32,000 nt of DNA from Candidatus Hadarchaeales archaeon (GTDB taxonomy: Archaea; Hadarchaeota; Hadarchaeia; Hadarchaeales; Hadarchaeaceae): positions 150,001 through 182,000 of the forward strand of contig JAWBCC010000001.1 of assembly GCA_038823825.1 (NCBI GenBank), written 5' to 3'. The notes beneath the pieces are model-generated. The model was not told the origin of the DNA, did no database searches, and saw only the letters and a list, made by a program, of their open reading frames with translations. Positions 5,858 through 32,000 of this stretch are shown piece after piece (position 1 is the first letter of the stretch; each line of letters opens with the position of its first letter). The position numbers and the translations under genes are program-made.

Positions 5858-5875
5858 AATTTTGTGTTCAGATGT

Positions 5876-5925
5876 TCTATTAATCGTTTCGCAAAATTTT
5901 TCGCAGTTTACTCCATTTTTAAATA
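5876..5925. promoter_or_regulatory. Compact divergent promoter region: two TATA-like boxes flanking a TTTCGCA-N5-TTTCGCA direct repeat
   Basis: 'tctattaat' (5876-5884; reads ATTAATAGA on the minus strand) lies ~23 nt from the GTG at 5857. 'tttttaaata' (5916-5925) lies ~30 nt upstream of the glgA ATG at 5954. TTTCGCA occurs at 5887-5893 and 5899-5905, a 12-nt period. Confidence 0.4.
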
Positions 5926-5953
5926 GGTTTAGCGGTTAGTTTTGTGGAGGATC

Positions 5954-7117
5954 ATGAGAATAGGGGTATTGAGCTGGGAATCCCTTTACACGCTGCAGGT
6001 TGGAGGACTGGGAGTAGTCGCGACAAGGCTCTGCGAAGAGCTGGCAAAAGCCGGCCACGAGGTTTACATGTTCACGCGTGGAGCTCCCGGACAACCGAGC
6101 TACATGTACATAAACGGCGTGAACTATTACATCTGCGAATTTGATCCCGGTATGAACTGTGTGCAGTTTGCATATAACATGTCCATGTCGATGGTGAAAA
6201 CTCTCCGGGAGGTCGAGAAATATGAGGGCAAGTTTGACATAATTCACGGACATGACTGGATGGTTGTCGATGCGCTAGATAAACTCAAGAAAGAGGGATA
6301 TCCCGCCGTGCTTACTTTCCATTCCACAGAATACGGAAGAAATGGTTCAAAGTTTGGTGATTGGTGGGAATTCCGTGAAATCTCGAAGAAAGAGTGGTGG
6401 GGTGGACAGATCTCGGATGTGGTGACTACCGTCTCGAACGCGATGAAAGGCGAGTTGAACTGGTTATATAAAATTCCTATGAACAAAATCGAAGTAATAC
6501 CTAATGCCGTCGATCCGGCAAAGTATCAGCTAAACGTAGATCCGGCTGAAGTCAAAAAGAGATACGGAATAGATCCCTCCTCTCCCGTGATTCACTTTGT
6601 GGGCAGAATGGAATATCAGAAAGGACCGGATCTTCTCGTCGAGGCAATACCGAAAGTCTTAGAGGCCCATCCCCAAGCTAGATTCATATTTTCCGGGAGC
6701 GGTGGCATGAAGGGCTACCTCGAGCAGAGGGCCAGAGAACTGGGAATTTCGCATGCCACCAGATTTCTCGGTTTTGTTCCTTATCGCGAGTTTCTAGAAA
6801 TATTGAACGCCTGCGATATCGTTTGCTTGCCGAGCAGAAACGAGCCATTTGGGATAGCTCTCCTCGAAGCTTGGGCGGCCGGTAAGCCTGTTGTTGCAAC
6901 GGATGTTGGGGGTTTGGGAGAGAATATAGAAAACTTTGTAGATGGTGTAAAAGTATTTCCATGGCCTGAGTCTATTGCTTGGGGGATAAACTATCTGCTC
7001 GAGTCTGCAGACGGAAGGGAATTTGTGGCTCGTGGTGGAAGAGAAAAAGTTAAAAAGTTTTCATGGGCTAACTCTCTCGCTAAATTGCTCAAGGTCTATG
7101 AAAGAGTGCTCGGTTGA
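5954..7117 (+). CDS. glgA: Glycogen/alpha-glucan synthase (GT-B, GT4/GT5-like)
   Basis: [41 protein letters not shown] is an N-terminal (K/Q)xGGL-type motif. The C-terminal EX7E region is [32 protein letters not shown] 5954 is preferred over the track's TTG at 5942. Confidence 0.8.
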
Positions 7118-7121
7118 GAAA

Positions 7122-9035: not shown

Positions 9036-9042
9036 TGTTTTC

Positions 9043-17052: not shown

Positions 17053-17151
<99 letters not shown>

Positions 17152-19003: not shown

Positions 19004-20542
19004 TTGTCAGAGGCTGAAAAATACGCGAAGTACATGGTCCGCGGAAGCATCACAATCTTCCTATCCTTTGTTCTATCCGGTCTAGCCGCTCTGCTGATCA
19101 GGATAGTCCTGGCCAGAAATCTAACCCCAGAAGAGTATGGAATGGTCTATGCTGCATTTTATTTCGTGAGCTTTTTTGGTTTCTTCAGGGAGCTGGGTCT
19201 GACGGCATCTCTTACGAAATATATCCCCGAGTTTCTGACAAAAAAGGATTATTCATCGATACGTGCATCCATAAAATTCGTTCTGCTTCTTCAAGTGGCC
19301 ATAGTTGGTGCGGTTTCAACAGTTTTATTCTTTCTCTCACCATACATTGCCTCAGGCTTTATCGGACAACCGGGAGCCACCCAAATTCTCCGATATTTCA
19401 CGATATGGCTTTTTCTCTCCATCTTTTATTCAACTTTGCTCAGCATTTTTCAAGGCTTCCGCGATATAGCTGCGCACGGTTTACTGACGGCTGGTTTTGA
19501 AATATCAATTTTGGTTTTTCTGGTTCCCCTCCTATTTCTTTTCAATTTGGGGGCAAACGGCGCCGCTTTAGCCTATCTTTTCGGTACTCTAGTTCTCTCC
19601 GTTATATTCCTTTTTTACCTTAGACTTAAGCACGGCGAAATATTCTCAGTTCCCTCGGCTCAGCTCAAAATCGTTGCACGTCCTCTTCTTCTCTTTTCGA
19701 TCCCGCTCGCGCTAGCGAGCATTTTCTCTATGCTCATGAGTTATATTGACACCTGGGCAGTCACCGCCTTCTGTGGCGTAGAAGAGGTTGGATACTATCA
19801 GGTTGCACAGCCGACAGCACGTCTGCTATACTATGTGGCCGGATCGATCGTTATCCCGCTTTTTCCCTTGATTTCGGAGCTCTGGGCAAAAAACGATAGG
19901 TCATTTTTGAGCGGCGTAGTTTCGTCCATATTGAGTTTTTCATTTCTATTAATGATGCCTTTTGTTTTGGTTTTCATAGCTTTTCCAGAGGTCGTCATTC
20001 GCATCCTTTTCGGAGAAGGATATGTCGCTGGTGCACCCGTTCTTCAAATCTTCGCAGTAACTGCCTTGATATCGCTTTTATACAAAATCTTCAGCACGAC
20101 AGCCGCGGGAATAGGAAAACCGAAGGCAATCTTGACCGTAGCGATCAGCATGGGTGTGGCGGCGATCGCTTTTAACATGACTTTGGTCCCTGTCTGGGGC
20201 ATGAAAGGCGCAGCCTTTTCTCAGCTTATCGCTCACATGGCTGGTTTTGTCGTATACGCTGCATATTTGCGCAGATTTATAAAATTCTCTCTTCCAGTCT
20301 CCCCCATGATAAAAACAATAACTGGAAGCGTTTTTACTCTTCTGATTGTCTGGAGTCTAAAATCGATTTTGATTCTTCCAGTCTTCATTGAGACAGCGAT
20401 CGTTGCGTTCGCAGGTCTGCTATTTTACCTCATCTGGATTATTGCGACAAAGGCCTTGACAAGAGATGACATCGCTCTTCTGGTGAGAGCATTCCCAATT
20501 CCGCGGAGACTTGTTACATGGGCTGCAAGATATTTCAAATAA
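19004..20542 (+). CDS. Polysaccharide/oligosaccharide flippase (MOP/Wzx family)
   Basis: 512 aa, with roughly 12-14 hydrophobic helices throughout and a basic N-terminus. TTG start preceded by AAGGAGGTGA (18990-18999). Confidence 0.8.
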   Translation: MSEAEKYAKYMVRGSITIFLSFVLSGLAALLIRIVLARNLTPEEYGMVYAAFYFVSFFGFFRELGLTASLTKYIPEFLTKKDYSSIRASIKFVLLLQVAIVGAVSTVLFFLSPYIASGFIGQPGATQILRYFTIWLFLSIFYSTLLSIFQGFRDIAAHGLLTAGFEISILVFLVPLLFLFNLGANGAALAYLFGTLVLSVIFLFYLRLKHGEIFSVPSAQLKIVARPLLLFSIPLALASIFSMLMSYIDTWAVTAFCGVEEVGYYQVAQPTARLLYYVAGSIVIPLFPLISELWAKNDRSFLSGVVSSILSFSFLLMMPFVLVFIAFPEVVIRILFGEGYVAGAPVLQIFAVTALISLLYKIFSTTAAGIGKPKAILTVAISMGVAAIAFNMTLVPVWGMKGAAFSQLIAHMAGFVVYAAYLRRFIKFSLPVSPMIKTITGSVFTLLIVWSLKSILILPVFIETAIVAFAGLLFYLIWIIATKALTRDDIALLVRAFPIPRRLVTWAARYFK

Positions 20543-20545
20543 TCT

Positions 20546-21268
20546 TCAGAGAAAACCTCTTTTCATGAGTTCTTCCGCGATGATGAAGTCAAGCTCTGTG
20601 TTTATGTCAAAGGATTCCATTTCATCCATTACCAAAGCTAGGATCTCGTCCCCGGTCACGGATTTTTTCTCCCAAATGGTTTTCGGTCTTATCACGTCTA
20701 TGCAGGCGTTTTGTATGTAAACCTTGGGTAAAATCTGGTATGGTAAGCTGTGTCCATTTTTTGGTTTTTTATCAAGTGGTACGAACGATTTAAGTCTATT
20801 CCCCTCAATTACCCACATCTTGTAAGGATGTTCCTTACATAGCCTGACTGATCGAAGCGAATCCGCGTCTGGATTCTCAAGCATCATCTCTATCGCTTTA
20901 TCGATTGTTGAAGGTTTAAGAAAAGGCGAGGTGGGAAATAGCTTGACCACGAGGTCCGGGATGTACCCCTCATTGTCCCGCAACCAGTTAAGGGCATGCT
21001 CTATGGCGTAAAACTCGGGGGAATCCTCTTTTGCGAATTCTTTTGGACGGTAAAATGGAACCTCTGCTCCACACTCTCTGGCAACCTTGGCAATTTCCTC
21101 GTCATCGGTTGAAACGATTATTCTGTTTATATATTTGGATTTTCTCGCAGCCTGTATTACGTAGTAAATAAGGGGCTGTCCCGCGAGCGGTCTGATGTTC
21201 TTTCTCGGAACCCTTACGGAGCCACCTCTGGCAAGAATCAGTCCCAAAATCTTCATTTCCCGAGCCAT
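20546..21268 (-). CDS. Acylneuraminate (nonulosonate) cytidylyltransferase, NeuA/LegF-like
   Basis: ILARGGSVRVPRKNIRPLAGQPLIYYVI, IIVSTDDEEIAKVA, PFYRPKEFAKEDSP, YQILPKVYIQNACIDV. 16-nt overlap with the upstream transketolase gene. Confidence 0.85.
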   Translation of the reverse strand: MAREMKILGLILARGGSVRVPRKNIRPLAGQPLIYYVIQAARKSKYINRIIVSTDDEEIAKVARECGAEVPFYRPKEFAKEDSPEFYAIEHALNWLRDNEGYIPDLVVKLFPTSPFLKPSTIDKAIEMMLENPDADSLRSVRLCKEHPYKMWVIEGNRLKSFVPLDKKPKNGHSLPYQILPKVYIQNACIDVIRPKTIWEKKSVTGDEILALVMDEMESFDINTELDFIIAEELMKRGFL

Positions 21269-23151
21269 TTCTTCACCTTTTGTTTTATGCTCTCCGCATC
21301 AAGTCCAAAATAAGCCAAAATTTCTCCATTTTCTCCGGATTTCCCGTACCCTTCTATTCCTATTGTGTAGATTCTTCTGCCAAGTATTCTGTTTAGCTCT
21401 TCCGATATCCCACCTTTTGTAGAATGATTTTCTAAACAGATCACAGTTTCAAAGTCTTCCGTCTCTCTCAGGAGCCATTCTTCGTCAATTCTGTTCAGCC
21501 AAGGTAGGTCTATTATTTTGACTTTTATCTCATCTTTTTCCAACATTTGGCGGGCAATCAGAGCCTCGGAAAGCATGGTCGGACCATAACCTATCATAAC
21601 GGCATCTTTCCCATCCGCCAACTTTATTCCCTTGCCAAGTTCGAGTTTTTGTTCTTTCCATGGTATTTGCAACCTTGGAATGTTGTGCTCAAGCCTAAGG
21701 TAACTTGGCCCATCGTAATCGAAGACCAAAAACTCAAAGATTCTTCTCAACTCCTCTTTGCATGAAGGCGCGGAGAGTAGAAGATTTGGAATGTTTCGCA
21801 GGAGGGCTATATCTCTGATTCCTTGGTGAGATTTTCCCGGTTTTGCGGGGAGGATTCCGGCGAGATGACCGACATAGATTATCTTTGAACCCTCAGAGCA
21901 GTTATTGAAAATTTGTTCATTTGCTCTGGAGGTTAGAAATGCGGCATAGGTGTTTACAATTGGAAGCTTGCCGGCGAGAGCGAGTCCACCGGCTATCGAA
22001 ACCATGTCCTGTTCCGCGATTCCGACTTCCACAAACCTCTCGGGAAAGGTTATCTGGAATTCGCGCAGGCCGCAGGACTCCGCGAGATCTGCATCGAGCA
22101 CGATTAACTCTTTTTTCTTTCCTCCTACATCGACCAGAATTTGTGAGAAAGCTTCGACTAGAGACTCTCCGGGTTTTGGAGGTTTTTCTGCTAAATCTGG
22201 GCGGAAGACGGGGAAAGCTATGGGAATTTTATGTCTAGCCAACTTTTTCTTTATTCTCGTTGCAATTTCCCCCCAAGCTTTCCGATATTCTTCTCCGAAG
22301 GGGAGTTTATCGTGCCATTTGTAGAATCCCTTGCCGGACTTGAGAGCCACAGGATGTTCCATGAAAGAAACACCCTTTCCTTTTATCGTGTTGAGAATGA
22401 TGGCTTTCGGTTTACCCCTTATTTTCCTTATTTTTTTCAGAACTCTCAAGATTTTGCCAATATCATGCCCGTTTGTGACCTCAACATGCCATCCGAATGA
22501 TTTCAGTTTTTCTCTGATTGGGGAGATATCGACGACTCTTTCAACAGGCATGTCGGTTTGTACATAGTTTCTATCAATGAGCAGGTAAAGGTTATCGAGT
22601 TTCCAGTGACTCGCTGAGAGAACGGCCTCCCAATTTTGTCCCTCTTGGAGTTCGCCGTCTCCAACCAGAACATAAACGGACTTCTTAACCCCATCCAGCT
22701 TTGCGCTTAAAGCAAATCCCTTCGCTTTTGATATTCCCATTCCAAGCGAACCGGTGTTTGTTTCCACTCCGGGAGCAGATATCTCGGCATGTCCCTCCAG
22801 CCCATTTAACCTTCTAAAGGTTGCCAAACGTTCTGTTGGGAAAAAGCCACAGGATGCCAATGTTGAATAAAGCGCAGCCGCGGCATGTCCCTTGGAGAGA
22901 ATAAAAACATCTCGTTCGGCGTTTTTTGGATTGGTGGGGTCGATTTTCATTTCGGAGTGATATAAAACTGTCAAAATTTCTACGGCGCTGAAGGATGCTC
23001 CTATATGCCCGGATTTTGCGCAGATGATTGTGTTCAAAGCGTTTAATCTGATCATGTCTGCGATAACCGAAAGCTTCTCCTCAAGCTTCATCGTTCTGCA
23101 TTTTTTGACCTCGTCAAAGTCTGATTTCTCGAAAAAGATTTTCATCCTCAA
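21253..23151 (-). CDS. Transketolase-family ThDP enzyme, with the 'split-type' N and C sections fused in one 632-aa polypeptide
   Basis: N section: AKSGHIGASFS, ILSKGHAAAALY, LEGHAE, TGSLGMGIS, GDGELQEGQNWEA (ThDP/Mg motif), DNLYLLIDRN. C section: FPERFVEVGIAEQDMVSIAGGLA, SHQGIRDIALLRNIPN. ATGA overlap with the upstream ALDH gene. Confidence 0.85.
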   Translation of the reverse strand: MRMKIFFEKSDFDEVKKCRTMKLEEKLSVIADMIRLNALNTIICAKSGHIGASFSAVEILTVLYHSEMKIDPTNPKNAERDVFILSKGHAAAALYSTLASCGFFPTERLATFRRLNGLEGHAEISAPGVETNTGSLGMGISKAKGFALSAKLDGVKKSVYVLVGDGELQEGQNWEAVLSASHWKLDNLYLLIDRNYVQTDMPVERVVDISPIREKLKSFGWHVEVTNGHDIGKILRVLKKIRKIRGKPKAIILNTIKGKGVSFMEHPVALKSGKGFYKWHDKLPFGEEYRKAWGEIATRIKKKLARHKIPIAFPVFRPDLAEKPPKPGESLVEAFSQILVDVGGKKKELIVLDADLAESCGLREFQITFPERFVEVGIAEQDMVSIAGGLALAGKLPIVNTYAAFLTSRANEQIFNNCSEGSKIIYVGHLAGILPAKPGKSHQGIRDIALLRNIPNLLLSAPSCKEELRRIFEFLVFDYDGPSYLRLEHNIPRLQIPWKEQKLELGKGIKLADGKDAVMIGYGPTMLSEALIARQMLEKDEIKVKIIDLPWLNRIDEEWLLRETEDFETVICLENHSTKGGISEELNRILGRRIYTIGIEGYGKSGENGEILAYFGLDAESIKQKVKKWLGK

Positions 23152-24632
23152 TCCCTTTTGAACTGGACGTTCTGAACTCCTCCACTGTAGTCTATGTAAA
23201 TCGTCTTAAGCTCGGAGAAGGTTTCGATTGCGGCCCATCCCACCTCCCTGTGGCCACCCGAGTCTTTTACACCGCCGAAAGGTAGATGGACTTCGGAGCC
23301 AAAAGTCGGGGCGTTAACGTAGCAAACTCCAGCCTCCATTTTATCAAGGGCTTCCATAGCTCTGTTGACGTTTCTAGTGAAGATTGATGCAGAGAGACCG
23401 TAGTTTGTTGAGTTGTGGACTTTTATGGCTTCCTCGAAGGAGTCAACTTTCATCACAGCGAGAACCGGGCCGAAGATTTCCTCTCTGGCGATCCTCATCT
23501 CGGGCTTGACCTCGGTGAAAATGGTTGGCTCAAAGTATAATCCTCTTGAATAATCCCCCTCTGTCAACCTTCTTCCCCCGAGGATCAGTTTGGCTCCTTC
23601 TCTTTTTCCTATCTCCACGTATGTGATGATCTTGTTCAGTTGTCTCTCGCTTATCACTGGGCCTATCTCCGTAGTTTCATCTTCTGGATGTCCGACTTTC
23701 ATCTTTTTTGTTCGATCTACAAGTCTTTCGATAAATTCCTCGTAAATTTCTGCGTGGACGATTGCTCTGCTCGTTGCCGTACAACGCTGTCCAGAGACTG
23801 TGAAAGCACCGCGTGCAACCGCATCCACGGCTAGCTCCAAGTCACAATCCTCCATAACTATCGCAGCATTCTTTCCGCCGAGTTCGAGCGAGACCTTGGC
23901 GAGTCTCTCCCCGCAGATGGAAGCGATTTTTCTTCCAACTTCCGTTGATCCGGTGAAAGAGATGAGTCTGACTCTCTTGTTTCTAACGAGAGCCTCTCCA
24001 GCTTCTTCTCCAATTCCCTGTACCATATTGAAAACTCCTGGAGGAAGCTCAGATTCCGCAAAAACTTCCGCTATCTTCGTTGCCGCGAAAGGTGCCTCTT
24101 CCGATGGCTTTACGACAACAGTATTCCCACAGATTAGGGCGGGAAAAACTTTCCAACATATCAGATTAATCGGAAAATTCCAAGGGACGATGATGCCGCA
24201 GACTCCTATTGGAAATCTTCTGGTCATTGCCAGCCTTTTCGGGAGTTCGGAAAAAGTTGTTCTTCCATACAGGCGTCTTCCTTCGCCTGCCATAAAATCG
24301 CACATGTCTATGGCAGCTTTTATCTCGCCCAGGGCATCCCTCATCGTTTTGCCAACATCTTTTACGAGAGCTTTAGCCAGCTCCTCCTTCCTCTTTCTAA
24401 GAAGTTCGCTTATCTGTTGAAGCATTCTTCCCCTAATGGGGGGAGGTGTCTCTGACCATTCCCTGAAAGCCTTCTCGGCCGCCTCCACGGCTTTTTCAAC
24501 GTCTCGTTCATCAGACTTAGGAAAGAGACCGATCACTTCGTCCGTGTTTGCGGGATTTCTTCTCTCAAAGGTTCTGCCGGAAGTTGTCTCGACCCATTCT
24601 CCACCTATGAAGTTGCGGAAAACTTCGGGCAT
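23148..24632 (-). CDS. NAD(P)+-dependent aldehyde dehydrogenase (lactaldehyde/glycolaldehyde/glyceraldehyde-DH-like)
   Basis: FIGGEWV N-terminus, VPWNFP, FTGSTEVG, catalytic LELGGKNA and SGQRCTA. The start is placed at ATG 24632 (MPEVFRNFIGGEW), 1 nt after the SDR stop. The track's alternative is 24656. Confidence 0.85.
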   Translation of the reverse strand: MPEVFRNFIGGEWVETTSGRTFERRNPANTDEVIGLFPKSDERDVEKAVEAAEKAFREWSETPPPIRGRMLQQISELLRKRKEELAKALVKDVGKTMRDALGEIKAAIDMCDFMAGEGRRLYGRTTFSELPKRLAMTRRFPIGVCGIIVPWNFPINLICWKVFPALICGNTVVVKPSEEAPFAATKIAEVFAESELPPGVFNMVQGIGEEAGEALVRNKRVRLISFTGSTEVGRKIASICGERLAKVSLELGGKNAAIVMEDCDLELAVDAVARGAFTVSGQRCTATSRAIVHAEIYEEFIERLVDRTKKMKVGHPEDETTEIGPVISERQLNKIITYVEIGKREGAKLILGGRRLTEGDYSRGLYFEPTIFTEVKPEMRIAREEIFGPVLAVMKVDSFEEAIKVHNSTNYGLSASIFTRNVNRAMEALDKMEAGVCYVNAPTFGSEVHLPFGGVKDSGGHREVGWAAIETFSELKTIYIDYSGGVQNVQFKRD

Positions 24633-24633
24633 G

Positions 24634-25455
24634 TCACCACGCCGTGTAACCTCCATCTATTACGATGTTCGCTCCAGTCATGTACGAGGAGGCATCCGAA
24701 GCCAGAAAGAGTATTGCACCATTATATTCGTCTTTTCTTGCCATTCTTCCAAGCGGAACCTTTGCTGAATAATTTTTCACGAATTCGGGATCCTGATTGT
24801 TGAAAACACCACCAAAAATTAGACAGTTGACCCTGACATTCTTTTTGGCCCAATAAGTTGCAAGATACTTCGTCAGGTTGGAGACGGCTCCTTTGCTCAC
24901 GCAGTATGAAACCGGCTTTACAAAAGTTTGCCCGCTCTTCAGCTCGTATATGCGTTGATCGGGCGAAACTTCGCCGTAAATGGATGAGATGTTTATGATG
25001 CTCCCGCCCCCGCCCCCGGCCATCTTGCTTCCTATGATTTGTGTGCAGAGAATAGTTCCGATGACGTTCACGTCAAGAATCTTGCGAAGCAGATCCTCTG
25101 GGTAATTCTCAAATGTTAGAGTTTTTCCACCATATGTAGGTGGCACGTCTATTGCTGCGGCATTTACCAAGATTTTTGGAAAACCCCATTTTTTGACGAC
25201 GTCTTCGAGGGCACGCTCTATCGAGTCTCTGTCCGTCACATCAACCTTGTAGACGGCAATTCTCTCGCTTTTAAAAAGTTCTCGATATTCCTCAGGGACC
25301 TCGGTTTGAAGGTCAAAGACTGCGACCTTCGCCCCTGCGCCGTGGAGAGTTTTTACGAATTCTCTTCCGAGGAGTCCGGTGCCGCCCGTGACTATGGCAA
25401 CCCTGCCCTCGAGACCAAAAAGCTTGCTTAACATCTCTAAGTCTACTTCCGTCAT
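24634..25455 (-). CDS. Short-chain dehydrogenase/reductase, PtmA ('flagellin modification protein A')-like
   Basis: VAIVTGGTGLLG cofactor motif; YCVSK catalytic Y-x3-K. The ISSIYGEVSPDQRIYE...LTKYLATYWAKKNVRVNCL..GGVFNNQ...FLASDASSYMTGANIVIDGG pattern matches, from memory, the SDR subfamily found in nonulosonate loci. Confidence 0.75.
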   Translation of the reverse strand: MTEVDLEMLSKLFGLEGRVAIVTGGTGLLGREFVKTLHGAGAKVAVFDLQTEVPEEYRELFKSERIAVYKVDVTDRDSIERALEDVVKKWGFPKILVNAAAIDVPPTYGGKTLTFENYPEDLLRKILDVNVIGTILCTQIIGSKMAGGGGGSIINISSIYGEVSPDQRIYELKSGQTFVKPVSYCVSKGAVSNLTKYLATYWAKKNVRVNCLIFGGVFNNQDPEFVKNYSAKVPLGRMARKDEYNGAILFLASDASSYMTGANIVIDGGYTAW

Positions 25456-25476
25456 GCTTCAAAATTGATTTTTCGT

Positions 25477-25531
25477 GTAGATAAATAGAGTTTTCTGTTT
25501 GGGGAAAATTTTTCAAAAATCGTTTTTATTA
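25477..25531. promoter_or_regulatory. Divergent promoter region between the SDR operon and the NANS-like gene
   Basis: 'gataaatag' (TATA-like on the minus strand, ~28 nt from ATG 25455) and 'tttttatta' (25523-25531, ~30 nt from ATG 25557). Neither first gene has a convincing SD, so they may be leaderless. Confidence 0.35.
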
Positions 25532-25556
25532 GAAGAAGTCATCATAATTTGGAAAG

Positions 25557-26615
25557 ATGAAAGAGATAAGAGAGGTCAAGATAGGCAGCAGGTGGGTGGG
25601 CGACGACCATCCATGTTACATCGTCGCTGAAATCGGGAACAACCACAACGGTGAGCTCGAGATTGCTAAAAGACTGATCGAGGCTGCTTATGAGTGTGGG
25701 GCTGATGCCGTCAAATTCCAAAAGAGGGATATCGATTCTCTAATGACAAATGAACTCAAAAACATGCCTTATCTGAAATACGATTCTTTTGGGGCTACCT
25801 ATGGCGAACACAGACAAAAATTGGAGCTTCCTGAAGAAGATTGGTATAGGCTTTTCAACTTTGCCAAGAAGCTCGGAATTGATTTTTATGCAACGCCTTT
25901 TGATTTCAAAAGCGCCGATTTTCTTGAGAAACTGGGTGTCCCTTGCTTTAAGATAGCCTCCTTTGATGTCACAAATTTGCCATTGATCGATTACGTATGC
26001 AAGAAGGGAAAACCGGTTATCCTTTCTACCGGCATGTGCACATGGGAGGAGCTCGATGAGGCGGTCGAAGTCATACGGAGAAATGGAAACGATTTCATCC
26101 TCCTCCACTGTGTTTCGGCCTATCCGCACGACAACGAGATGTCAAATCTCCGGATGATTCAGAAGCTGAAAGAAAGATACAAAGTACCGGTCGGATATTC
26201 AGGGCACGAGAAATCAGGATTTGTCATTTCGCTTGGAGCCAGAATGATGGGTGCATGTATGATCGAAAGACACTTCACGCTCGATAGGACGATGAAAGGA
26301 CCTGACCATGCCGCATCTTTAGAGCCGAAAGGTCTAGCCGAACTGGTTAAAAACATCCGTAAGCTGGAGCAGGCCTTCGGAGACGGTGAGAAAAAGATTT
26401 TGGACATAGAGATGCCTCTGAGGCTTAAAATGACGAAAAGCATAGTAACGACGCGCTACATAAGGGCTGGAGAGGTCATAAGAAGGGAAGATCTCACCGT
26501 TAAATGTCCGGGAACGGGGCTCAAGCCGAAATATATTGACATGCTTGTTGGCAAAGTGGCTAAGAAGGATTTGCCCGAGGATACTATCGTTCCACTTGAG
26601 GCTCTCGAGTGGTAG
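25557..26615 (+). CDS. Nonulosonate-9-phosphate synthase-like NeuB homologue (animal NANS / KDN-9-P synthase type) with a C-terminal SAF domain
   Basis: RWVGDDHPCYIVAEIGNNHNGELEIAKRLIEAAYECGADAVKFQK, GATYGEHRQKLEL, GYSGHE, KGPDHAASLEPKGLAELV. These align closely with my recollection of human NANS (RWVGGQHPCFIIAEIGQNHQGDL..KFQK, GKTYGEHKRHLEF, GYSGHE, KGSDHSASLEPGELAELV). They do not match bacterial NeuB/PseI (K.QT.., SDHT). Confidence 0.8.
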   Translation: MKEIREVKIGSRWVGDDHPCYIVAEIGNNHNGELEIAKRLIEAAYECGADAVKFQKRDIDSLMTNELKNMPYLKYDSFGATYGEHRQKLELPEEDWYRLFNFAKKLGIDFYATPFDFKSADFLEKLGVPCFKIASFDVTNLPLIDYVCKKGKPVILSTGMCTWEELDEAVEVIRRNGNDFILLHCVSAYPHDNEMSNLRMIQKLKERYKVPVGYSGHEKSGFVISLGARMMGACMIERHFTLDRTMKGPDHAASLEPKGLAELVKNIRKLEQAFGDGEKKILDIEMPLRLKMTKSIVTTRYIRAGEVIRREDLTVKCPGTGLKPKYIDMLVGKVAKKDLPEDTIVPLEALEW

Positions 26616-27105
26616 ATTTCTTTGCCTCGTAAATCATATCACAGATTTCTCTTACGGCTCCTCTCCCACCTGGATTTTTTGTCACGTAGTCGGCCTCTCT
26701 CACTACTTCAGGCATGCTACCTTTTGGCGCAATCGACAATCCGGCAAACCTCATGCATTCGAGATCCGGGGTGTCGTTTCCGACGAAGCAAGCTTCCTGC
26801 GGAAGAACTTTCTCTCTTTCCAAGATTTTCTTGAAGGCATTTAGTTTGTTTTTCTCACCCGTCACGCATTCCAATCCTAGTTTTGCGCATCTCTTTTCGA
26901 CAATCGGATTTATCTCCGAGCTTATTACAACGGTTTTGACGCCGATCTCTTTCAGTTTTTGCAATCCAATTCCGTCTGATCTCCAACAGCAGACCATCTC
27001 TCTTCCGTCTTGATCGACGTAAACCTTGTTGTCTGTGAAAACTCCGTCGAAATCGAAGGCTACCAGCTTTATCCTCTTCAGTTTTTCTCTGCTAGGTTTC
27101 TTCAT
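26584..27105 (-). CDS. HAD-IIIA KdsC-family sugar-acid phosphate phosphatase
   Basis: KLVAFDFDGVFTDNKVYVDQDGREMV (DxD nucleophile motif), SDGIGLQKL, VVISSE, NKL.AF, FVGNDTPDLECM, ADYVTKNPGGRGAVREICDMI, which is near-colinear with KdsC/YrbI. ATG 27105 is preferred over TTG 27108. The 3' end overlaps the NANS-like gene by 32 nt. Confidence 0.85.
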   Translation of the reverse strand: MKKPSREKLKRIKLVAFDFDGVFTDNKVYVDQDGREMVCCWRSDGIGLQKLKEIGVKTVVISSEINPIVEKRCAKLGLECVTGEKNKLNAFKKILEREKVLPQEACFVGNDTPDLECMRFAGLSIAPKGSMPEVVREADYVTKNPGGRGAVREICDMIYEAKKSTTREPQVER

Positions 27106-27171
27106 CAAAAGAACTTGATAACCTCATGCTTTTAAGAATCGTTAATAAAATCGAACCTCCTAATTTAATGG

Positions 27172-28596
27172 ATGCGGACAATCTTCATGACGATTCCGGA
27201 TTGGTTTTCGGCCAGAAATATCATCCAAACCGACGCCTTCAGGATATTAAAATCTCAGGAGGACCTGCGGATAGTGGTATTTTCCCCTTTTGCTGGCGGA
27301 AGATCTTGTCTGGAAGATTTGCCGGGCGTGAAAGGGGAGAATGTGATTTTTGAGGATCAGGCCAGATATCTACCAAATTTCGTGGAAAGGCTGTTCAGGA
27401 AGATGCAGGAACTGATCGTTTTCAACATAAATTACGTAGAAAACGTTTGGTTTAAGGAAAAATATCTGATGAGGGAAAATCTTCTGCTCTACTCGTCTTT
27501 TGAGGTTCTCAAAAGAATTCTTGGAAAGAGAAGGTTTCTTCTGAGGTATCTTGACTCTTTAGATTGGCTATTGGCAAGTCCGAAGCACTCGAGATATCTG
27601 GAACTCTTCAGGAAATACAAACCGGACCTTGTTTTTTCAACAAACATACTGAGGCATACAGATTGGAAGCTCGTGCAAACAGCCCGCAGAGCAGGGGTTC
27701 CAGTAATCTCAATGGTTGCGAATTGGGATCATCTCACAAAGGGGATTCTTCCGCCCTCAGATTTCGTCATCGCTTGGAGCGAGTTCAACAGGAAGGAGTT
27801 AATGTCTTACTATGGGTATCATCCGAATCAGATCGCGATTGTCGGAATCCCGCATCAGGATTATTTTGTAAGAGTAAACCCCGAGGAGGCTAAAAGGAAG
27901 ATAAGAACGGAGCTCGGACTCAAAGAGGAAAAACTTATCCTTTACACAACTGCTCGGAGCATATATTACGAGCCTGAAATAGTGGAGATTTTATGCGAGG
28001 CGGTTAGAAAGGGCGAAATCAATTTCCCGGTTCACGTTCACGTCCGCGTTCATCCGGAGGACAACTACGCCAGATATAGGCACATAGAGGAGAAGTATGG
28101 CGATTTTGTGACCTTTGAGGGCGGAGGTAAGACCTTGGTTCCAAGAGTCTATTCCGTGAAGGCTCAGACCGAAATGGATACGAGGGGTAAAATGTGGCTA
28201 CCTGATGAAGGAGATATGATTCACTATGCTGAGCTTCTCTACTCGTGCGATGTTGCTGTCAATATTGCTTCGTCCGTTACCTTGGACTCTGTTGCCGTGG
28301 ACAAGCCAACAGTCAATATAGCCTTTGACGGATATCGGGAAAGGCCATTCATAGAGTCGACGAGGAGATACTTTTACACCACGCACTACAAAGTAGTTGC
28401 GAAGTCTGGTGGGGTTAAAATCGCGAGGAATCCGAAAGAGCTTGTCGATTTCATAAACATGTATCTGGAGAATCCGGAGCTAGACAGGGAAGGGAGAAGG
28501 AAAATTGTCGAGGAAAGCGGGGGACCGATTGATGGGAAATGTGGAGAGAGAATCGCAAAGGCTGTTTTAGAATTCCTAAAGAAGACGAGTGGATAA
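27172..28596 (+). CDS. Hypothetical GT-B-fold protein, TagF/CDP-glycerol glycerophosphotransferase-like; candidate glycan transferase
   Basis: 474 aa with no TM segment. Weak family-like patterns: KPDLVFSTN, GVPVISMVANWDH, KLILYTTARS, VRVHPED, LLYSCDVAVNIASSVTLDSVAVDKPTVNIAFDGY. A TATA-like 'ttaataaaa' lies ~26 nt upstream. Confidence 0.4.
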   Translation: MRTIFMTIPDWFSARNIIQTDAFRILKSQEDLRIVVFSPFAGGRSCLEDLPGVKGENVIFEDQARYLPNFVERLFRKMQELIVFNINYVENVWFKEKYLMRENLLLYSSFEVLKRILGKRRFLLRYLDSLDWLLASPKHSRYLELFRKYKPDLVFSTNILRHTDWKLVQTARRAGVPVISMVANWDHLTKGILPPSDFVIAWSEFNRKELMSYYGYHPNQIAIVGIPHQDYFVRVNPEEAKRKIRTELGLKEEKLILYTTARSIYYEPEIVEILCEAVRKGEINFPVHVHVRVHPEDNYARYRHIEEKYGDFVTFEGGGKTLVPRVYSVKAQTEMDTRGKMWLPDEGDMIHYAELLYSCDVAVNIASSVTLDSVAVDKPTVNIAFDGYRERPFIESTRRYFYTTHYKVVAKSGGVKIARNPKELVDFINMYLENPELDREGRRKIVEESGGPIDGKCGERIAKAVLEFLKKTSG

Positions 28597-28599
28597 GGA

Positions 28600-29592
28600 A
28601 TGCCGTTCAATGTGGTATTTTTCACAGAAGGTGGAGAAAACGCAGGTTTTGGTCACATAACTAGATGCAGGGCTCTTTCCGATGCTTTTGAAGAGGTTGG
28701 TAGGGAGACCACTTTCGTTGTAAAAGGCGATGAAAAAATCGTCAAGTTTCTAAATAGGGACGTAGTTTTGGAAAATTGGATCGATGATTTCGAGACGTTC
28801 AAAAGCTTTCTTTCTTCCGCCGATCTTGTTGTGATAGACTCGTACTTGGCGTCGCTAGACCATTACCGGTGGGCAAGTGAGTTAAAAAGGTGTCTATTTG
28901 TTGACGATTTCAGAAGATTGGACTATCCGCCAAAAAGCATCGTCTTGAATGGAAGCATCTACGCTGAGAAGCTGAGATATCCAAAAAGGAAGGGTGTTCG
29001 ATATTTATTGGGTTCAAAGTTCGCACCGCTTAGAAGGGCTTTCTGGGAGGTTGAAGAAAAAGTTGTAAATCCGGAGATCGAAAAAATTTTTGTCAGTTTT
29101 GGTCTAAATGACACGAGGAGATTGATACCGTCAGTGGTGAAAACTCTTTCCGAGAAATTTCCACAGTGTGAGCTATGCGTTGTCGTAGACCCACAGTCGC
29201 CGAGTGGAAAGAAGTTGCTTTCGATGGATTTGAAAAACGTGAAGATTTTCGGAAACTTATCCGCGGAAGAGATGAAGGAACTCATGCTTGAATGCGATGT
29301 TGCCGTGAGTGCTGGAGGTCAGACTACATATGAACTCGCCAGAGTTGGAGTACCTTCTGTTCTCATAGCCGTGGCGGAAAATCAGCTCTTGAACTGTAAG
29401 GGTTGGCAGGGGGCTGGATTCGCTTATTACGTTGGTTTTGCCGGAAGTGAGAATACACTCCGAAAAATAATCGAGCACCTGAAAAAACTTGAAGACGAAA
29501 AAATTAGGTCAAAGATGAGTAAAATTGGGAGAAAATATGTCGACGGGCAGGGGGCTAGAAGAGTTGTTAAAGAATTTCAGAATAGTGGATGA
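28600..29592 (+). CDS. pseG: PseG/SpsG-family UDP-sugar hydrolase (UDP-2,4-diacetamido-2,4,6-trideoxy-beta-L-altropyranose hydrolase-like)
   Basis: VVFFTEGGENAGFGHITRCRALSDAF (the family's GxGHxxR motif), LVVIDSY, VSFGLNDTRRL, DVAVSAGGQTTYELARVGVPSVLI. Starts 3 nt after the upstream stop. Confidence 0.75.
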   Translation: MPFNVVFFTEGGENAGFGHITRCRALSDAFEEVGRETTFVVKGDEKIVKFLNRDVVLENWIDDFETFKSFLSSADLVVIDSYLASLDHYRWASELKRCLFVDDFRRLDYPPKSIVLNGSIYAEKLRYPKRKGVRYLLGSKFAPLRRAFWEVEEKVVNPEIEKIFVSFGLNDTRRLIPSVVKTLSEKFPQCELCVVVDPQSPSGKKLLSMDLKNVKIFGNLSAEEMKELMLECDVAVSAGGQTTYELARVGVPSVLIAVAENQLLNCKGWQGAGFAYYVGFAGSENTLRKIIEHLKKLEDEKIRSKMSKIGRKYVDGQGARRVVKEFQNSG

Positions 29593-29740
29593 AATCGTTT
29601 TGCTAAAGACTTGAGAAACAGTAGTTGGACTCCGGAAGTGGATGGATAAACTCCAATTTGGCTAAAAAGTCGTAAATCTCAAAAATTTATTGCAAGATTA
29701 ATATAGTCAATTGGTAGACTCAAGTATGGGAGGAATCCAG

Positions 29741-30469
29741 ATGGGTGAGAGCAAAAACATCGTTGTCGCCACAATCAAAAGCTGGAATATTAGGCTGGCA
29801 GAAAAACTTCAAAAAGAATTGGAAGGGAAATACAATGTATATATCATGACAAAGAAAGAGGATTTGTCGCCTGAGAATCTAGAGAACATTCGACCGATTT
29901 ACATCTTTTTTCCCCATTGGTCTTGGATTATTCCACCAGAGGTGTATACGAGATTTGAATGTATAGGTTTTCACATTACAGACTTACCGTATGGTCGAGG
30001 AGGAAGTCCACTACAAAATTTGATTTTGAAAAAGAAATACGAAACAAAAATAACAGCTTTTCGGATCGGCAGAGACATAGATGCTGGGGAAATTTATTTG
30101 AAAGTCCCATTTTACATAGGATTGGGTAGCGCAGAGGAAATTTTTATTAAAGCATCTGAGATCATTTTCACAAAAATGATTCCTCAAATTTTAGAATCCA
30201 GACCAATTCCTGTACCACAAACGGGGGAAGTAGTAATTTTCAAAAGAAGAAGCCCAGAGGAAAGTAATTTAGCAGGAGCAGATATTAAAAATCTCGATGA
30301 TCTTTATGATTTCATAAGAATGTTGGACGCTGAGGGATACCCCAGAGCTTTCATTAAGATAAATAATGTGGTAATCTTGTTTTCAGAAGCACACAAGAAG
30401 GAAGGAAAAGTAGTTGGGAGGTTTGAGGCAGTTGAAGAACAAAATTCTGGCTATAGTAGCGCACCCTGA
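29741..30469 (+). CDS. Formyltransferase-family protein (Fmt N-terminal-domain-like), associated with the nonulosonate locus
   Basis: FFPHWSWIIPPEVY..ECIGFHITDLPYGRGGSPLQNLIL...AFRIGRDIDAGEIY resembles the H-x-S/T-x-LP-x-x-RG and DxG motifs of formyl transferases. ATG 29741 is preceded by GGGAGGA; the track's alternative is TTG 29711. Confidence 0.65.
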   Translation: MGESKNIVVATIKSWNIRLAEKLQKELEGKYNVYIMTKKEDLSPENLENIRPIYIFFPHWSWIIPPEVYTRFECIGFHITDLPYGRGGSPLQNLILKKKYETKITAFRIGRDIDAGEIYLKVPFYIGLGSAEEIFIKASEIIFTKMIPQILESRPIPVPQTGEVVIFKRRSPEESNLAGADIKNLDDLYDFIRMLDAEGYPRAFIKINNVVILFSEAHKKEGKVVGRFEAVEEQNSGYSSAP

Positions 30470-31109
30470 TGATGAAATTTTAGGATGTGGTGGAACTCTA
30501 GCCAAGTTTGCAAAACAGGGATGGGAAGTATATGTGCTGAGTCTTAGTCGCGGCGTAACTTCGCGATACGAAAGTGAAGAAAAAAGTAGCAAAAAAAAGA
30601 TTAGTGAGTTAGAAATTCAGGCTCGAGAGGCAAATAAGATAATTGGCACAAAGCGACTTTTCATGCTCGATTTTCCAGACAATATGTTTGATACAATACC
30701 CCTACTTAAAATTGTAAAATCAATTGAAAAAATTAAAAACATGATACGTCCTAGTTTTGTTTTTACTCACTTCAGAGAGGATCTCAATATTGATCATAGA
30801 ATAACATATGAGGCAACTATTACTGCAATGAGGCCTTTACCTAATGAAACCGTGAAAGAGATACTTTCCTTCGAAATAATGTCTTCAACGGAATGGCGGT
30901 ACCCCACTCGTTTTTCACCAAATGTATTTGTCGATATATCGGATACGATTGATCTAAAGCTTCATGCCATGGAGGCCTACAAAGAGGAGTTGAGAACACC
31001 TCCTCACCCCCGCTCTCTCGAAACTATAAAATTTAATGCGGCAGTTTGGGGAAGTAAAGTTGGTCTAAAATTTGCCGAAGCCTTTGAATTAATACGGAAA
31101 GTATGCTAA
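30432..31109 (+). CDS. PIG-L/LmbE-family N-deacetylase
   Basis: ILAIVAHPDDEILGCGGTLAKFAKQG (the PIG-L signature AHPDDE) and a later HxDH (NIDHR). There is no ATG upstream of the signature, so a TTG start is required. TTG 30432 lies 9 nt after GGGAGGT (30416-22); the alternative is TTG 30414. Overlaps the upstream gene by 38-56 nt. Confidence 0.8.
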   Translation: MKNKILAIVAHPDDEILGCGGTLAKFAKQGWEVYVLSLSRGVTSRYESEEKSSKKKISELEIQAREANKIIGTKRLFMLDFPDNMFDTIPLLKIVKSIEKIKNMIRPSFVFTHFREDLNIDHRITYEATITAMRPLPNETVKEILSFEIMSSTEWRYPTRFSPNVFVDISDTIDLKLHAMEAYKEELRTPPHPRSLETIKFNAAVWGSKVGLKFAEAFELIRKVC

Positions 31110-31125
31110 TTTATGGTCTGATAGA

Positions 31126-31725
31126 ATGAAGCAGAAACACGGAAACTTGGCAAATTTACGTCTGAAAAAATTCAAAATTGATGATATAGAGCTGATTAAT
31201 TTCGTGAATTTAAACAAAGACGAGAAGAACATCGTTTTGAAGATGAGAAATCATGATACAGTGAGGAAGTGGATGTATAATAATAGGATCATCTCGCCGC
31301 ACGAACATTACCGTTTTATTTGGTCTCTCAAAAAAGATTCAAAAAACTTCTATTTTTTGGTCAGGAGGCAAAACAAATTTATGGGGGTAGTGTATCTAAC
31401 CAGAGTGGATTTCATGAACAGAAACGGATATTTGGGTCTGTATGCGAATCCTTTTTTTTCTGAGAAAAAAATTGGAACAATTTTGGGAAATATTCTTCTA
31501 AAACTTGCTTTCGACATTGCGGGACTTCACACTCTGAAGCTGGAGGTCATAGAGGACAACGAGAGGGCGATACATCTATATAAAAAATTGGGTTTTGTCG
31601 AAGAAGGAAGGTTGAGAGAATTTGTCTTCAGAGATGGAAAGTGGAAAGACGTAATTATTATGGGAATGACCGAAGAGGAATATCGGAGAAAGCGTCATGA
31701 AAGTGGAGTTGAAAATAGGAGATAG
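31126..31725 (+). CDS. pseH: PseH-like GNAT N-acetyltransferase
   Basis: LNKDEKNIVLKMRNHDTVRKWM...ISPHEHYRFIWSLKKDSKNFYFLV....GVVYLTRVD..NRNGYLGLYANP...AIHLYKKLGF matches the layout of C. jejuni PseH as I recall it (WRNHP...FM, EEHLRFL..L..D..KKYFLV, FGLYAKP). Confidence 0.75.
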   Translation: MKQKHGNLANLRLKKFKIDDIELINFVNLNKDEKNIVLKMRNHDTVRKWMYNNRIISPHEHYRFIWSLKKDSKNFYFLVRRQNKFMGVVYLTRVDFMNRNGYLGLYANPFFSEKKIGTILGNILLKLAFDIAGLHTLKLEVIEDNERAIHLYKKLGFVEEGRLREFVFRDGKWKDVIIMGMTEEEYRRKRHESGVENRR

Positions 31726-32000
31726 AATAATCGGCGAGGGGCATCCAGTATTCATAGTCGCCGAGCTTTCCGCAAATCATCTTCAAAAGTTGGACTTGGC
31801 GAAAGAAACGATAAAAGCCATGAAAAAGGCGGGCGCGGACGCGGTAAAGCTCCAGACTTACACTCCCGATACGCTTACGATAAACTCAAAAAAGGATTAT
31901 TTTAAAATCAAACAGGGGACGCCTTGGGACGGCCACTATCTCTACGATCTCTACAAACAGGCTTACATGCCTTGGGAATGGCACGAGGAGTTATTTGATC
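31697..32000 (+). CDS. pseI: Pseudaminic acid synthase, 3'-truncated by the window edge (not in the ORF track)
   Basis: My translation from ATG 31697: MKVELKIGDRIIGEGHPVFIVAELSANHLQKLDLAKETIKAMKKAGADAVKLQTYTPDTLTINSKKDYFKIKQGTPWDGHYLYDLYKQAYMPWEWHEELFD. AELSANH, AGADAVKLQTYTPDTLT and LY.LY..A..PWEWH are PseI hallmarks. 29-nt overlap with pseH. Confidence 0.85.
   Translation, partial: MKVELKIGDRIIGEGHPVFIVAELSANHLQKLDLAKETIKAMKKAGADAVKLQTYTPDTLTINSKKDYFKIKQGTPWDGHYLYDLYKQAYMPWEWHEELFD

Follow-up and report, generated by a model that had tools for sequence, protein, structure and literature searches.

The current analysis concerns a genuine surface-glycan island of a hot-spring archaeon from the Hadarchaeales, an order within the archaeal phylum Hadarchaeota. 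The island occupies the final part of a 32,000-nucleotide stretch of DNA (contig JAWBCC010000001.1 of assembly GCA_038823825.1, positions 150,001 to 182,000; hereafter the window, on whose scale coordinates are given unless stated otherwise). Its best overall explanation, which we hold with somewhat better than even confidence, is that it encodes two independent routes to cytidine monophosphate (CMP)-activated 2-keto-3-deoxy (ulosonic) sugars. One of these, a route to pseudaminic acid (Pse), extends a known pathway to a new group of hosts. The other, termed here module B, joins a NANS-like synthase, a phosphatase, and a NeuA-type cytidylyltransferase to a short-chain dehydrogenase/reductase (SDR), an aldehyde dehydrogenase (ALDH), and a transketolase (TK)-like thiamine diphosphate (ThDP) enzyme. 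An earlier interpretation made from the letters alone (the sequence-only reading) had treated the SDR, ALDH, and TK as extra tailoring enzymes. Instead, they are a fixed part of the phosphate-dependent route, forming a conserved module together with its synthase, phosphatase, and cytidylyltransferase. The same reading had predicted either two different nonulosonates or a single heavily decorated one. Of these, we judge two separate products to be more likely: presumably two distinct CMP-ulosonates, the second of which would be remodelled by the SDR/TK/ALDH trio, a proposal that we consider reasonably probable. The genes of module B in the window are as follows.

20546..21268, minus strand: NeuA-type CMP-ulosonate synthetase (CMPtr1), 240 aa; CTP_transf_3, 96.6 bits
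21253..23151, minus strand: fused transketolase-like ThDP enzyme, 630-632 aa; Transketolase_N, Transket_pyr, Transketolase_C
23148..24656, minus strand: NAD(P)-dependent ALDH, 494-502 aa; Aldedh, 606 bits
24634..25455, minus strand: classical SDR, PtmA-like, 273 aa; adh_short_C2, 157 bits
25557..26615, plus strand: NANS-like NeuB-family synthase (synthase 1), 352 aa; NeuB, 299.8 bits, plus SAF
26584..27108, minus strand: KdsC/YrbI-family haloacid dehalogenase (HAD) phosphatase, 173-174 aa; TIGR01670, 119.6 bits (cut-off 106.95)

Conservation of module B

The module B genes overlap one another within the window. The cytidylyltransferase gene overlaps that of the TK by 16 nt and the 3' end of the phosphatase gene overlaps the synthase 1 gene by 32 nt, while the SDR is encoded divergently from synthase 1 across a 101-bp spacer. 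These genes were followed into other genomes by two scans. A scan of species genomes with synthase 1 as the query recovered four loci, as a single-protein query of this kind reaches close relatives only. A scan of metagenomes, for which an alignment of 20 TK homologues served as the query and neighbors were identified by tblastn with the window proteins, recovered 80 loci, 61 of them module-type. Among the 20 module-type TK loci having at least 6 kb of upstream sequence, a cytidylyltransferase was found in 18 (within 6 kb of the TK and mostly adjacent to it), an ALDH in 19, an SDR in 18, a NANS-like synthase in 17, and a KdsC-type phosphatase in 9. The corresponding numbers for the 10 canonical-type TK loci having at least 3 kb upstream were 0, 0, 0, 0, and 1. 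In the metagenome loci, the genes recur on a single strand in the order synthase, (KdsC), SDR, ALDH, cytidylyltransferase, TK. Another member of the Hadarchaeota (locus L003) has the arrangement TK-ALDH-SDR-synthase-KdsC, and in a bacterial metagenome-assembled genome (MAG; locus L005) the order is synthase-KdsC-SDR-ALDH and then a split TK. One MAG of the Thermodesulfobacteriota and one of the Micrarchaeia likewise carry module B, in each case beside a flippase and KpsS-like (Capsule_synth) transferases. Homologues of synthase 1 (53-61% identity) are accompanied by a cytidylyltransferase together with an SDR and/or a HAD phosphatase, whereas the additional genes vary (DegT, radical SAM/SPASM, Gfo/Idh/MocA). 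From these neighbor patterns, the recurring core consists of the synthase, cytidylyltransferase, SDR, and phosphatase, with the TK and ALDH as one widespread elaboration of it.

The phosphatase step seems to be filled in more than one way. A HAD hydrolase of 237-268 aa, unrelated to KdsC, lies directly after the TK in L029, L031, L040, L073, and L079. Since L029, L031, L040, and L079 are devoid of a KdsC-type gene, this looks like a non-orthologous replacement. Separately, a protein family of 307-354 aa occupies the usual place of the synthase at L040 6469-7533 and L079 5587-6510 and is also encoded in L034 and L045; searches of Pfam and the Protein Data Bank (PDB) returned no match for it.

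The co-occurrence data also bear upon a simpler view, namely that module B makes ordinary CMP-2-keto-3-deoxynonulosonic acid (CMP-Kdn) or CMP-N-acetylneuraminic acid (CMP-Neu5Ac), with the SDR, ALDH, and TK being unrelated metabolic neighbors, such as a pentose-phosphate transketolase. Such a view would suit the generic NCBI annotation of the TK ("transketolase C-terminal domain-containing protein"), the derivation of all three proteins from large housekeeping families, and the lack of an ALDH in both L004 and L048. However, among the 20 loci with enough flanking sequence, 17-19 combine the trio with the synthase and cytidylyltransferase, canonical-type TKs do not have these neighbors, the genes overlap in the window, and the fused module TKs have lost an Arg/His/Asp/Arg set described below. 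We therefore regard the unrelated-neighbor explanation as quite improbable.

An altered transketolase active site

The TK of module B scored 420 bits against NF004559, below its cut-off of 488, and the best PDB match was human TKT at 250 bits. Its residues are numbered here as in human TKT, with both the sequence and the numbering taken from the PDB alignment. The equivalents of His37, His77, His110, Asp155, Asn185, His258, and Glu366 are kept in the window TK and in all homologues aligned. Four other positions are replaced in the window TK: Arg318 by Val, His416 by Leu, Asp424 by Pro, and Arg474 by His. The same four positions are altered in all 50 of the fused module-type homologues aligned, with Val, Ile, or Ala in place of Arg318, Leu or Tyr in place of His416, Pro (once Thr) in place of Asp424, and Ser, Ile, His, or Asn in place of Arg474. 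TK homologues that do not have the module partners retain all four residues (16/16). Based upon the yeast, E. coli, and human TK structures, we take Arg318, His416, and Arg474 to be sugar-phosphate-binding residues and Asp424 to determine stereochemistry, with the four together contacting the substrate phosphate and the C2 hydroxyl of the acceptor. Given the kept ThDP residues and the lost phosphate residues, the module TK has very probably retained ketol (glycolaldehyde) chemistry while no longer acting on ordinary sugar phosphates.

Compared with canonical transketolases (human TKT, yeast TKL1, E. coli TktA), the module enzyme shares the three-domain fold family, the GDG...N ThDP/metal motif, the activating Glu, and the donor C1-hydroxyl His. 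It is distinct in the four replaced residues, in an insertion before His258, and in being tied to a nonulosonate operon rather than to pentose-phosphate genes.

Two synthases of different subfamilies

The sequence-only reading had proposed that the island encodes two non-orthologous NeuB-family synthases, and the subfamily scores bear this out. One is a true PseI (515 bits for the full gene, and 355 bits against the solved C. jejuni PseI 8h2c), and the other, synthase 1, is NANS-like and reaches only 174 bits against the same structure. On these scores, we reject the view that they are duplicates of a single pathway. The two local synthases are 39% identical to each other. Synthase 1 passes neither of the nearest curated models (NeuB_NnaB, 354 bits against a cut-off of 399.65; PseI, 283 bits against 340.25) and is approximately equidistant from the solved NeuB, SpsE, and PseI proteins (174-183 bits). 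Against a provisional human NANS reference sequence, synthase 1 shows 41% identity, 271 bits, and 3 gaps, and together with its relatives it covers 38-46% identity, 250-308 bits, and 1-3 gaps, compared to 31%, 174 bits, and 9 gaps for the local PseI. Pairwise and model scores such as these place synthase 1 in the NANS clade instead of the bacterial NeuB, LegI, or PseI clades.

A similar distinction can be observed for the cytidylyltransferases. The best PDB matches of the module B enzyme are NeuA/CMP-Neu5Ac synthetases (9ftb, 6ifd, 1qwj, 1eyr), whereas a second cytidylyltransferase, encoded downstream of the window, resembles 6oew and KdsB. Judged by these matches, each route owns a cytidylyltransferase of a different type.

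A probable phosphate-dependent route with three additional enzymes

Like synthase 1, the other enzymes of module B belong to recognizable families while scoring below the most specific models. The phosphatase scores 128 bits against the KdsC equivalog (cut-off 208) and 83.6 against the KDN-9-P phosphatase model (cut-off 180), with KdsC matches of about 100 bits in the PDB. The SDR scores 171 bits against PRK09186 (PtmA-type; cut-off 255) and contains the TGxxxGxG and YxxxK motifs. For the ALDH, the NCBIfam models that come nearest are those for alpha-ketoglutaric semialdehyde dehydrogenase and 2,5-dioxovalerate dehydrogenase, neither of which reaches its cut-off, and the ALDH translation shows an ELGGKN motif and the catalytic Cys motif. 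Phosphatase and synthase are also linked in L003, in L005, and in 14 of 49 module-containing loci, mostly those of the metagenome scan. Together with the gene overlap in the window, this ties the phosphatase to synthase 1, and the phosphate-dependent step that had been proposed earlier is predicted on the grounds of gene linkage and homology. Thus, a predicted dedicated phosphatase for a 9-phosphate product is present.

These features are highly reminiscent of the phosphate-dependent route of animals (NANS-NANP-CMAS), Prymnesium parvum, and Bacteroides thetaiotaomicron, which similarly employs a NANS-like synthase, an adjacent HAD phosphatase, and a NeuA/CMAS-type cytidylyltransferase; KdsC/YrbI is also the class of both the B. 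thetaiotaomicron KDN-9-P phosphatase and the C-terminal domain of CMAS. There are several differences as well. The module B phosphatase is nearer to KdsC than to the KDN-9-P model, and the SDR, ALDH, and altered TK are fixed operon parts having no counterpart in the known NANS route. Unlike that route, module B is also not accompanied by a supply of N-acetylmannosamine 6-phosphate (ManNAc-6-P), as genes for GNE, a kinase, or other ManNAc-6-P supply were encountered neither in the 22.7 kb of annotated island nor in the conserved core of the module. Because module B includes no amino-sugar enzymes, mannose 6-phosphate (Man-6-P) is the most economical substrate candidate, as a Kdn-type pathway starting from it would need no extra enzyme. 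The Kdn-9-P synthase of P. parvum provides a precedent for the use of Man-6-P (PMC6200933), and a KDN-9-P synthase and phosphatase of B. thetaiotaomicron are attributed to Wang et al. 2008, as cited in PMC6200933.

Proposed function of module B

Whereas the gene content, the subfamilies, the conservation of the module, and the residue loss of the TK are observed, the substrates, step order, product, and acceptor are what we infer from them. Firstly, the NANS-like synthase would condense phosphoenolpyruvate (PEP) with a sugar 6-phosphate, Man-6-P being the candidate, to yield a 9-phosphate, from which the KdsC-type phosphatase would then remove the phosphate. Next, the NeuA-type enzyme would convert the product to a CMP-sugar. 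Lastly, the SDR, the ThDP enzyme devoid of its phosphate site, and the ALDH would remodel the sugar. The chemistry that we would prefer for this final step is that the SDR oxidizes C8 to create an 8-keto, 9-hydroxy ketol, from which the TK could excise C8-C9 as a glycolaldehyde unit. The ALDH might then oxidize either the new C7 aldehyde, leading to a 3-deoxy-heptulosaric acid, or the released glycolaldehyde, as a means of detoxification. Our best guess for the product of module B, made with low confidence, is a Kdn-type acid having a shortened or oxidized side chain. The more specific proposal that module B is a pathway widespread among Bacteria and Archaea, in which the TK acts on a Kdn-type nonulosonate or its CMP ester so that C8-C9 are excised or rebuilt to form a new class of CMP-activated C7 ulosonic or ulosaric acid for display at the cell surface, is offered only tentatively and is rather doubtful as it stands.

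The trio could also act before the synthase, building an unusual aldose phosphate (chain-extended or oxidized, for example) for condensation with PEP. The module holds no other precursor-forming enzyme, the accessory enzymes of Pse, legionaminic acid (Leg), and Neu clusters normally make the hexose precursor, and transaldolase chain extension of sugar phosphates is known in lincosamide octose biosynthesis. However, the module TK has lost its donor and acceptor phosphate residues, even though the pairing of synthase and phosphatase implies a phosphorylated substrate. Furthermore, the conserved core includes no kinase or isomerase, and an ALDH acting upon an aldose would destroy the very aldehyde that the synthase needs. 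For these reasons, we view action ahead of the synthase as unlikely and prefer remodelling of the sugar after condensation.

Several points weigh against the reading of two routes with a remodelled second product. The module is not invariant: the Hadarchaeales locus L004 (cytidylyltransferase-TK-SDR-synthase-glycosyltransferase) lacks both the ALDH and KdsC, L048 lacks the ALDH, and L040 and L079 lack a recognizable NeuB gene. Active-site loss is not universal either, since the split TK of L005 retains Arg318 and His416 and that encoded by Solidesulfovibrio carbinolicus, again within a nonulosonate island, is fully canonical. Because these two split TKs keep canonical residues, the recruitment of TKs into nonulosonate clusters is heterogeneous. 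The term NANS-like carries the caveat of its provisional reference sequence, and ManNAc-6-P, instead of Man-6-P, may be the substrate of synthase 1. The excision of C8-C9 is hypothetical, and we consider that particular chemistry to be doubtful. For the Pse route, the PseG-like protein (134 bits against a cut-off of 153.55, with MurG the next best model at 35 bits) and the PseB-like protein (316 against 407.75) both fall below cut-off, despite each curated model being the best match for its protein, and the PseF model (cut-off 205.7) is reached by neither cytidylyltransferase (141 bits for the module B enzyme and 49 for the downstream one).

The S. carbinolicus island was encountered in a search of plasmids with the TK, which found only TKs of at most 39% identity. 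It lies on plasmid pDCAR1 of strain DSM 3852 (81.5-101.3 kb) and encodes a NeuB-family protein, PseF, a second cytidylyltransferase, a FabG-type SDR, and the split TK, as well as two methyltransferases, an ATP-grasp ligase, PseB, and PseC. As its split TK is of the canonical type, we rejected this island as an example of the same module. S. carbinolicus is nevertheless a cultured bacterium and a possible experimental handle on the role of TKs in such pathways.

The predicted pseudaminic acid route and the downstream half of the island

The genes of the Pse route straddle the end of the window. Those within it are listed here.

28600..29592, plus strand: PseG-like UDP-sugar hydrolase, 330 aa; TIGR03590, 134 bits, below the cut-off of 153.55
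29711..30469, plus strand: formyltransferase-like protein, 1ZGH family, 242-252 aa; Formyl_trans_C_2, 62 bits
30414..31109, plus strand: PIG-L/LmbE-family N-deacetylase, 225-231 aa; PF02585; BshB1 model, 86.5 bits, below cut-off
31126..31725, plus strand: PseH N-acetyltransferase, 199 aa; TIGR03585, 164 bits (cut-off 93.1)
31697..32000, plus strand: PseI, first 101 codons (full gene 350 aa, running past the window end); fragment, 132 bits on the PseI model

The island extends at least 9.7 kb beyond the window end. In all, 22.7 kb of the island were annotated (19.0-41.7 kb of the extended locus), with the part beyond the window read from L001, the corresponding locus on the public contig. Downstream of the window, the genes occur in the following order.

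1st: rest of PseI; TIGR03586, 515 bits for the full gene in L001 (cut-off 340.25)
2nd: HemL-like class III aminotransferase
3rd: second cytidylyltransferase, KdsB/6oew-like; CTP_transf_3, PDB 6oew and KdsB matches
4th: Gfo/Idh/MocA oxidoreductase
5th: PseC; 443.2 bits against a cut-off of 423.5
6th: RmlB/LegB-like SDR, 308 aa
7th: PseB-like dehydratase; 316 bits, below the cut-off of 407.75
8th: 118-aa open reading frame (ORF), BFO_1060-like glycosyltransferase fragment (L001 17793-18149); matches the C-terminal third only
9th: GT4
10th: further BFO_1060-like glycosyltransferase

The sequence-only reading had suggested that pseB, pseC, and pseF might lie just downstream. Within 7 kb past the window end there are indeed a full-length PseI, a PseC above its cut-off, a PseB-like dehydratase below its own, and the second cytidylyltransferase, whereas a clear PseF is not among them. 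It is uncertain which cytidylyltransferase activates Pse, because both score below the PseF cut-off and it is the module B enzyme that scores higher. As in the Campylobacter jejuni and Helicobacter pylori pathway, PseC, PseH, and PseI exceed their NCBIfam equivalog cut-offs and the PseB-like and PseG-like proteins are found in the expected operons. Accordingly resembling that pathway in outline, route A would lead from UDP-N-acetylglucosamine (UDP-GlcNAc) to CMP-Pse via the PseB-like protein, PseC, PseH, the PseG-like protein, PseI, and a cytidylyltransferase. Aside from the archaeal host and the lack of a clear PseF, the island is distinguished from that of C. jejuni and H. pylori by an extra 1ZGH-type formyltransferase-like protein, PIG-L protein, second SDR, Gfo/Idh/MocA oxidoreductase, and HemL-like aminotransferase.

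The formyltransferase-like protein matches PDB 1zgh, a structural-genomics protein, with 254 bits and has weak matches to Fmt, ArnA, WlaRD, and PseJ. By eye, and relative to the E. coli Fmt motif, the His and Asp are presumably in place and the Asn position is Gly (Val in 1zgh). Its presence along with the PIG-L deacetylase suggests that an N-acetyl group is probably exchanged for another acyl group. The HemL-like aminotransferase, cytidylyltransferase, and Gfo/Idh/MocA trio lies between PseI and PseC (L001 11628-14709, about 32.7-35.8 kb on the window scale), and the Gfo/cytidylyltransferase pair is again found beside PseB and PseC in the metagenome locus L048. The trio might introduce a stereochemical or amino change into the Pse precursor.

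The proximity of these genes to module B raises the alternative that both halves make one heavily decorated nonulosonate, with the SDR, ALDH, and TK supplying an acyl substituent (glycolyl or glyceroyl) for Pse. Module B and Pse-type genes do occur together both here and in L048, DegT or PseB/PseH-like genes are found near several module loci, and the S. carbinolicus island combines a TK, SDR, ATP-grasp ligase, and methyltransferases with pseB, pseC, and pseF. Moreover, TK-type enzymes yield two-carbon glycolaldehyde, from which an ALDH could conceivably make the acid. Against this, module B exists without Pse genes in L003, L005, L016, L017, L094, L095, and many more loci, it has its own synthase, phosphatase, and cytidylyltransferase, and its conserved core is devoid of a ligase or acyltransferase for attaching an acid. 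We give a single decorated sugar only a slim chance and retain two separate products as the preferred interpretation.

Proposed transfer and export of the sugars

Two further genes of the window belong to the island.

19004..20542, plus strand: Wzx/MOP-type polysaccharide flippase, 512 aa; Polysacc_synt, 93.5 bits (cut-off 28.2), Polysacc_synt_3, MatE; NCBIfam Wzx/MurJ matches weak; upstream island edge
27172..28596, plus strand: GT-B glycosyltransferase, TagB/TagF (Glyphos_transf)/BFO_1060-like, 474 aa; Glyphos_transf, 41 bits

All genes listed between 19004 and 32000 are intact ORFs with the expected motifs, and every family that the sequence-only reading had named was found at its place in the ORF map and by the Pfam and NCBIfam scans. 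The Polysacc_synt score puts the flippase within the Wzx/MOP family. The GT-B protein was thought to be an orphan, a description that did not survive closer comparison: it belongs to a TagB/BFO_1060-like family, the relatives of which stand beside module B in other genomes. Its scores are 45.6 bits against BFO_1060_trans (cut-off 200) and 22.8 against TIGR04396 (cut-off 125), and a sequence search of the PDB with all 474 aa returned no match. An AlphaFold model (predicted local distance difference test score, pLDDT, 90.9) has the two-Rossmann GT-B fold, and Foldseek matches it with a probability of 1.0 to MshA, MurG, and UDP-GlcNAc 2-epimerases, a generic result without donor specificity. The family is found in Hadarchaeales, Ranarchaeia, and Patescibacteria. 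As the next gene after the synthase in L004 encodes a 44% homologue, with weaker relatives adjoining module B elsewhere, the GT-B protein is a likely candidate for the transferase of the module B sugar. TagB/KpsS-like GT-B enzymes of this sort would use a lipid-linked glycan as the acceptor of the sugars, and export of that glycan would fall to the Wzx flippase.

In bacteria, a family of 570 aa with a borderline Capsule_synth (KpsS/KpsC-like) match is encoded downstream of the module TK, at a distance of no more than about 3 kb, in L017, L023, L027, L031, L034, L040, L058, and L079, and in 6 of these 8 loci it comes directly after the TK or after the HAD gene. These proteins are likely the transferases of the module sugar in bacteria. 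Within the downstream half of the Hadarchaeales island, the 118-aa ORF is probably what is left of a transferase gene after truncation. An AglB oligosaccharyltransferase was not seen in the island as far as 41.7 kb.

Surroundings, archaeal origin, and assembly integrity

Upstream of 19 kb, the window encodes housekeeping functions, including glycogen metabolism, GatA, an AmmeMemoRadiSam radical SAM enzyme, an archaeal-type GlmM, Thi4, and PurU, which is why the island is taken to start with the flippase at 19004. The glycogen/alpha-glucan set (2369-12770) consists of a 1162-aa amylase-family protein having a sulfatase/phosphatase-like N-terminal part, a GT4 glycogen-synthase-like protein, GlgB (1000 bits), MalQ, and a 751-aa protein with a faint match to a branching-enzyme model only. 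At the start of the window (88-2394, plus strand), a 768-aa protein ends in a C-terminal PGF-pre-PGF domain (67 bits against 28). This protein may be secreted or exposed at the surface (S-layer-type) and could serve as an acceptor for the island glycans.

The archaeal origin of the DNA was borne out by the NCBI protein names ("Candidatus Hadarchaeales archaeon") and by an archaeal-type GlmM (543 bits against a cut-off of 439) and an intron-containing tRNA on the same stretch. ARAGORN had called this 99-nt tRNA (17053-17148, plus strand) a tRNA-Pyl (cta), a call that we set aside as an artefact caused by the intron. The Rfam tRNA model scores 54.8 bits, and immediately behind the CUUCU of the anticodon loop a stretch of 23 nt stands against 2 positions of that model. 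Most probably, the gene encodes a tRNA-Arg(UCU) interrupted at the canonical position 37/38 by an intron of about 21 nt, which is an archaeal feature, and neither a suppressor nor a Pyl tRNA.

An assembly or binning artefact, in which bacterial sugar genes have been joined to an archaeal contig, would be conceivable in view of the bacterial homologues of many of the enzymes and of the GC content, which falls from about 0.47 to 0.37-0.41 between 29.6 and 32 kb and does so once more across the downstream glycosyltransferases. However, the sequences of GatA, synthase 1, and PseH are identical in four assemblies, with equal accession spacing in three of them and contigs of up to 463 kb. The same locus is carried by another MAG on contig JAWBDA010000001.1 (286 kb, GCA_038822855.1), and a comparison of 10,875 nt of the window with the public contig gave 100% identity. 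In tetranucleotide usage, module B correlates with the housekeeping genes (0.83-0.90) much as the two housekeeping halves do with each other (0.90); values drift to 0.61-0.82 solely in low-GC glycosyltransferase stretches. In addition, the closest homologues of the synthase, TK, and glycosyltransferase are all from Hadarchaeales. The sequence-only reading had named a composition break at gene boundaries as the mark of a chimera; no join was seen, and the locus is collinear in several assemblies, making an artefact exceedingly improbable. The regions of low GC (0.37-0.41) cover the formyltransferase-like, PIG-L, and PseH genes (29.6-32 kb) and the downstream glycosyltransferases (L001 18000-20000), compared to 0.45-0.50 elsewhere. 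Such dips are typical of variable glycan islands and may reflect horizontally exchanged cassettes.

Significance

Several nonulosonate pathways are known to coexist within single genomes, as in C. jejuni (Neu5Ac, Pse, and Leg) and Leptospira, and nonulosonate clusters are known from archaea as well, such as that for legionaminic acid in a Halorubrum N-glycan. For this reason, a composite island is in itself unsurprising. Like those systems, the Hadarchaeales island encodes more than one NeuB paralogue, each served by its own cytidylyltransferase, in a cluster that also includes glycosyltransferases and a flippase. It is distinct from them in its Hadarchaeales host and in its second route, which is of the NANS/phosphatase type and joined to an SDR, ALDH, and TK. 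To our knowledge, the Hadarchaeota, a group of the deep subsurface and hot springs, have no cultured member and no glycan data. Our literature search for transketolases or ALDHs together with nonulosonate synthases found nothing describing module B, as the one paper in which all of these subjects came together does no more than list KEGG categories, and no nonulosonate report was found for the Hadarchaeales.

Nonulosonic acids shape the recognition of microbial surfaces, and few routes for their biosynthesis are known. Module B is a compact, strongly conserved operon that occurs in bacteria from soil, sediment, and freshwater and, among archaea, in Hadarchaeales and Micrarchaeia, and it couples a synthase step of the animal type (NANS plus phosphatase) to a thiamine enzyme with a visibly repurposed active site. 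If its product is a new ulosonic acid, module B would provide both a new sugar and a new TK chemistry acting on an acidic or nucleotide-linked sugar, and six small genes that are directly testable in E. coli. In that case, it could also explain some of the unassigned nonulosonate-like signals of environmental surveys.

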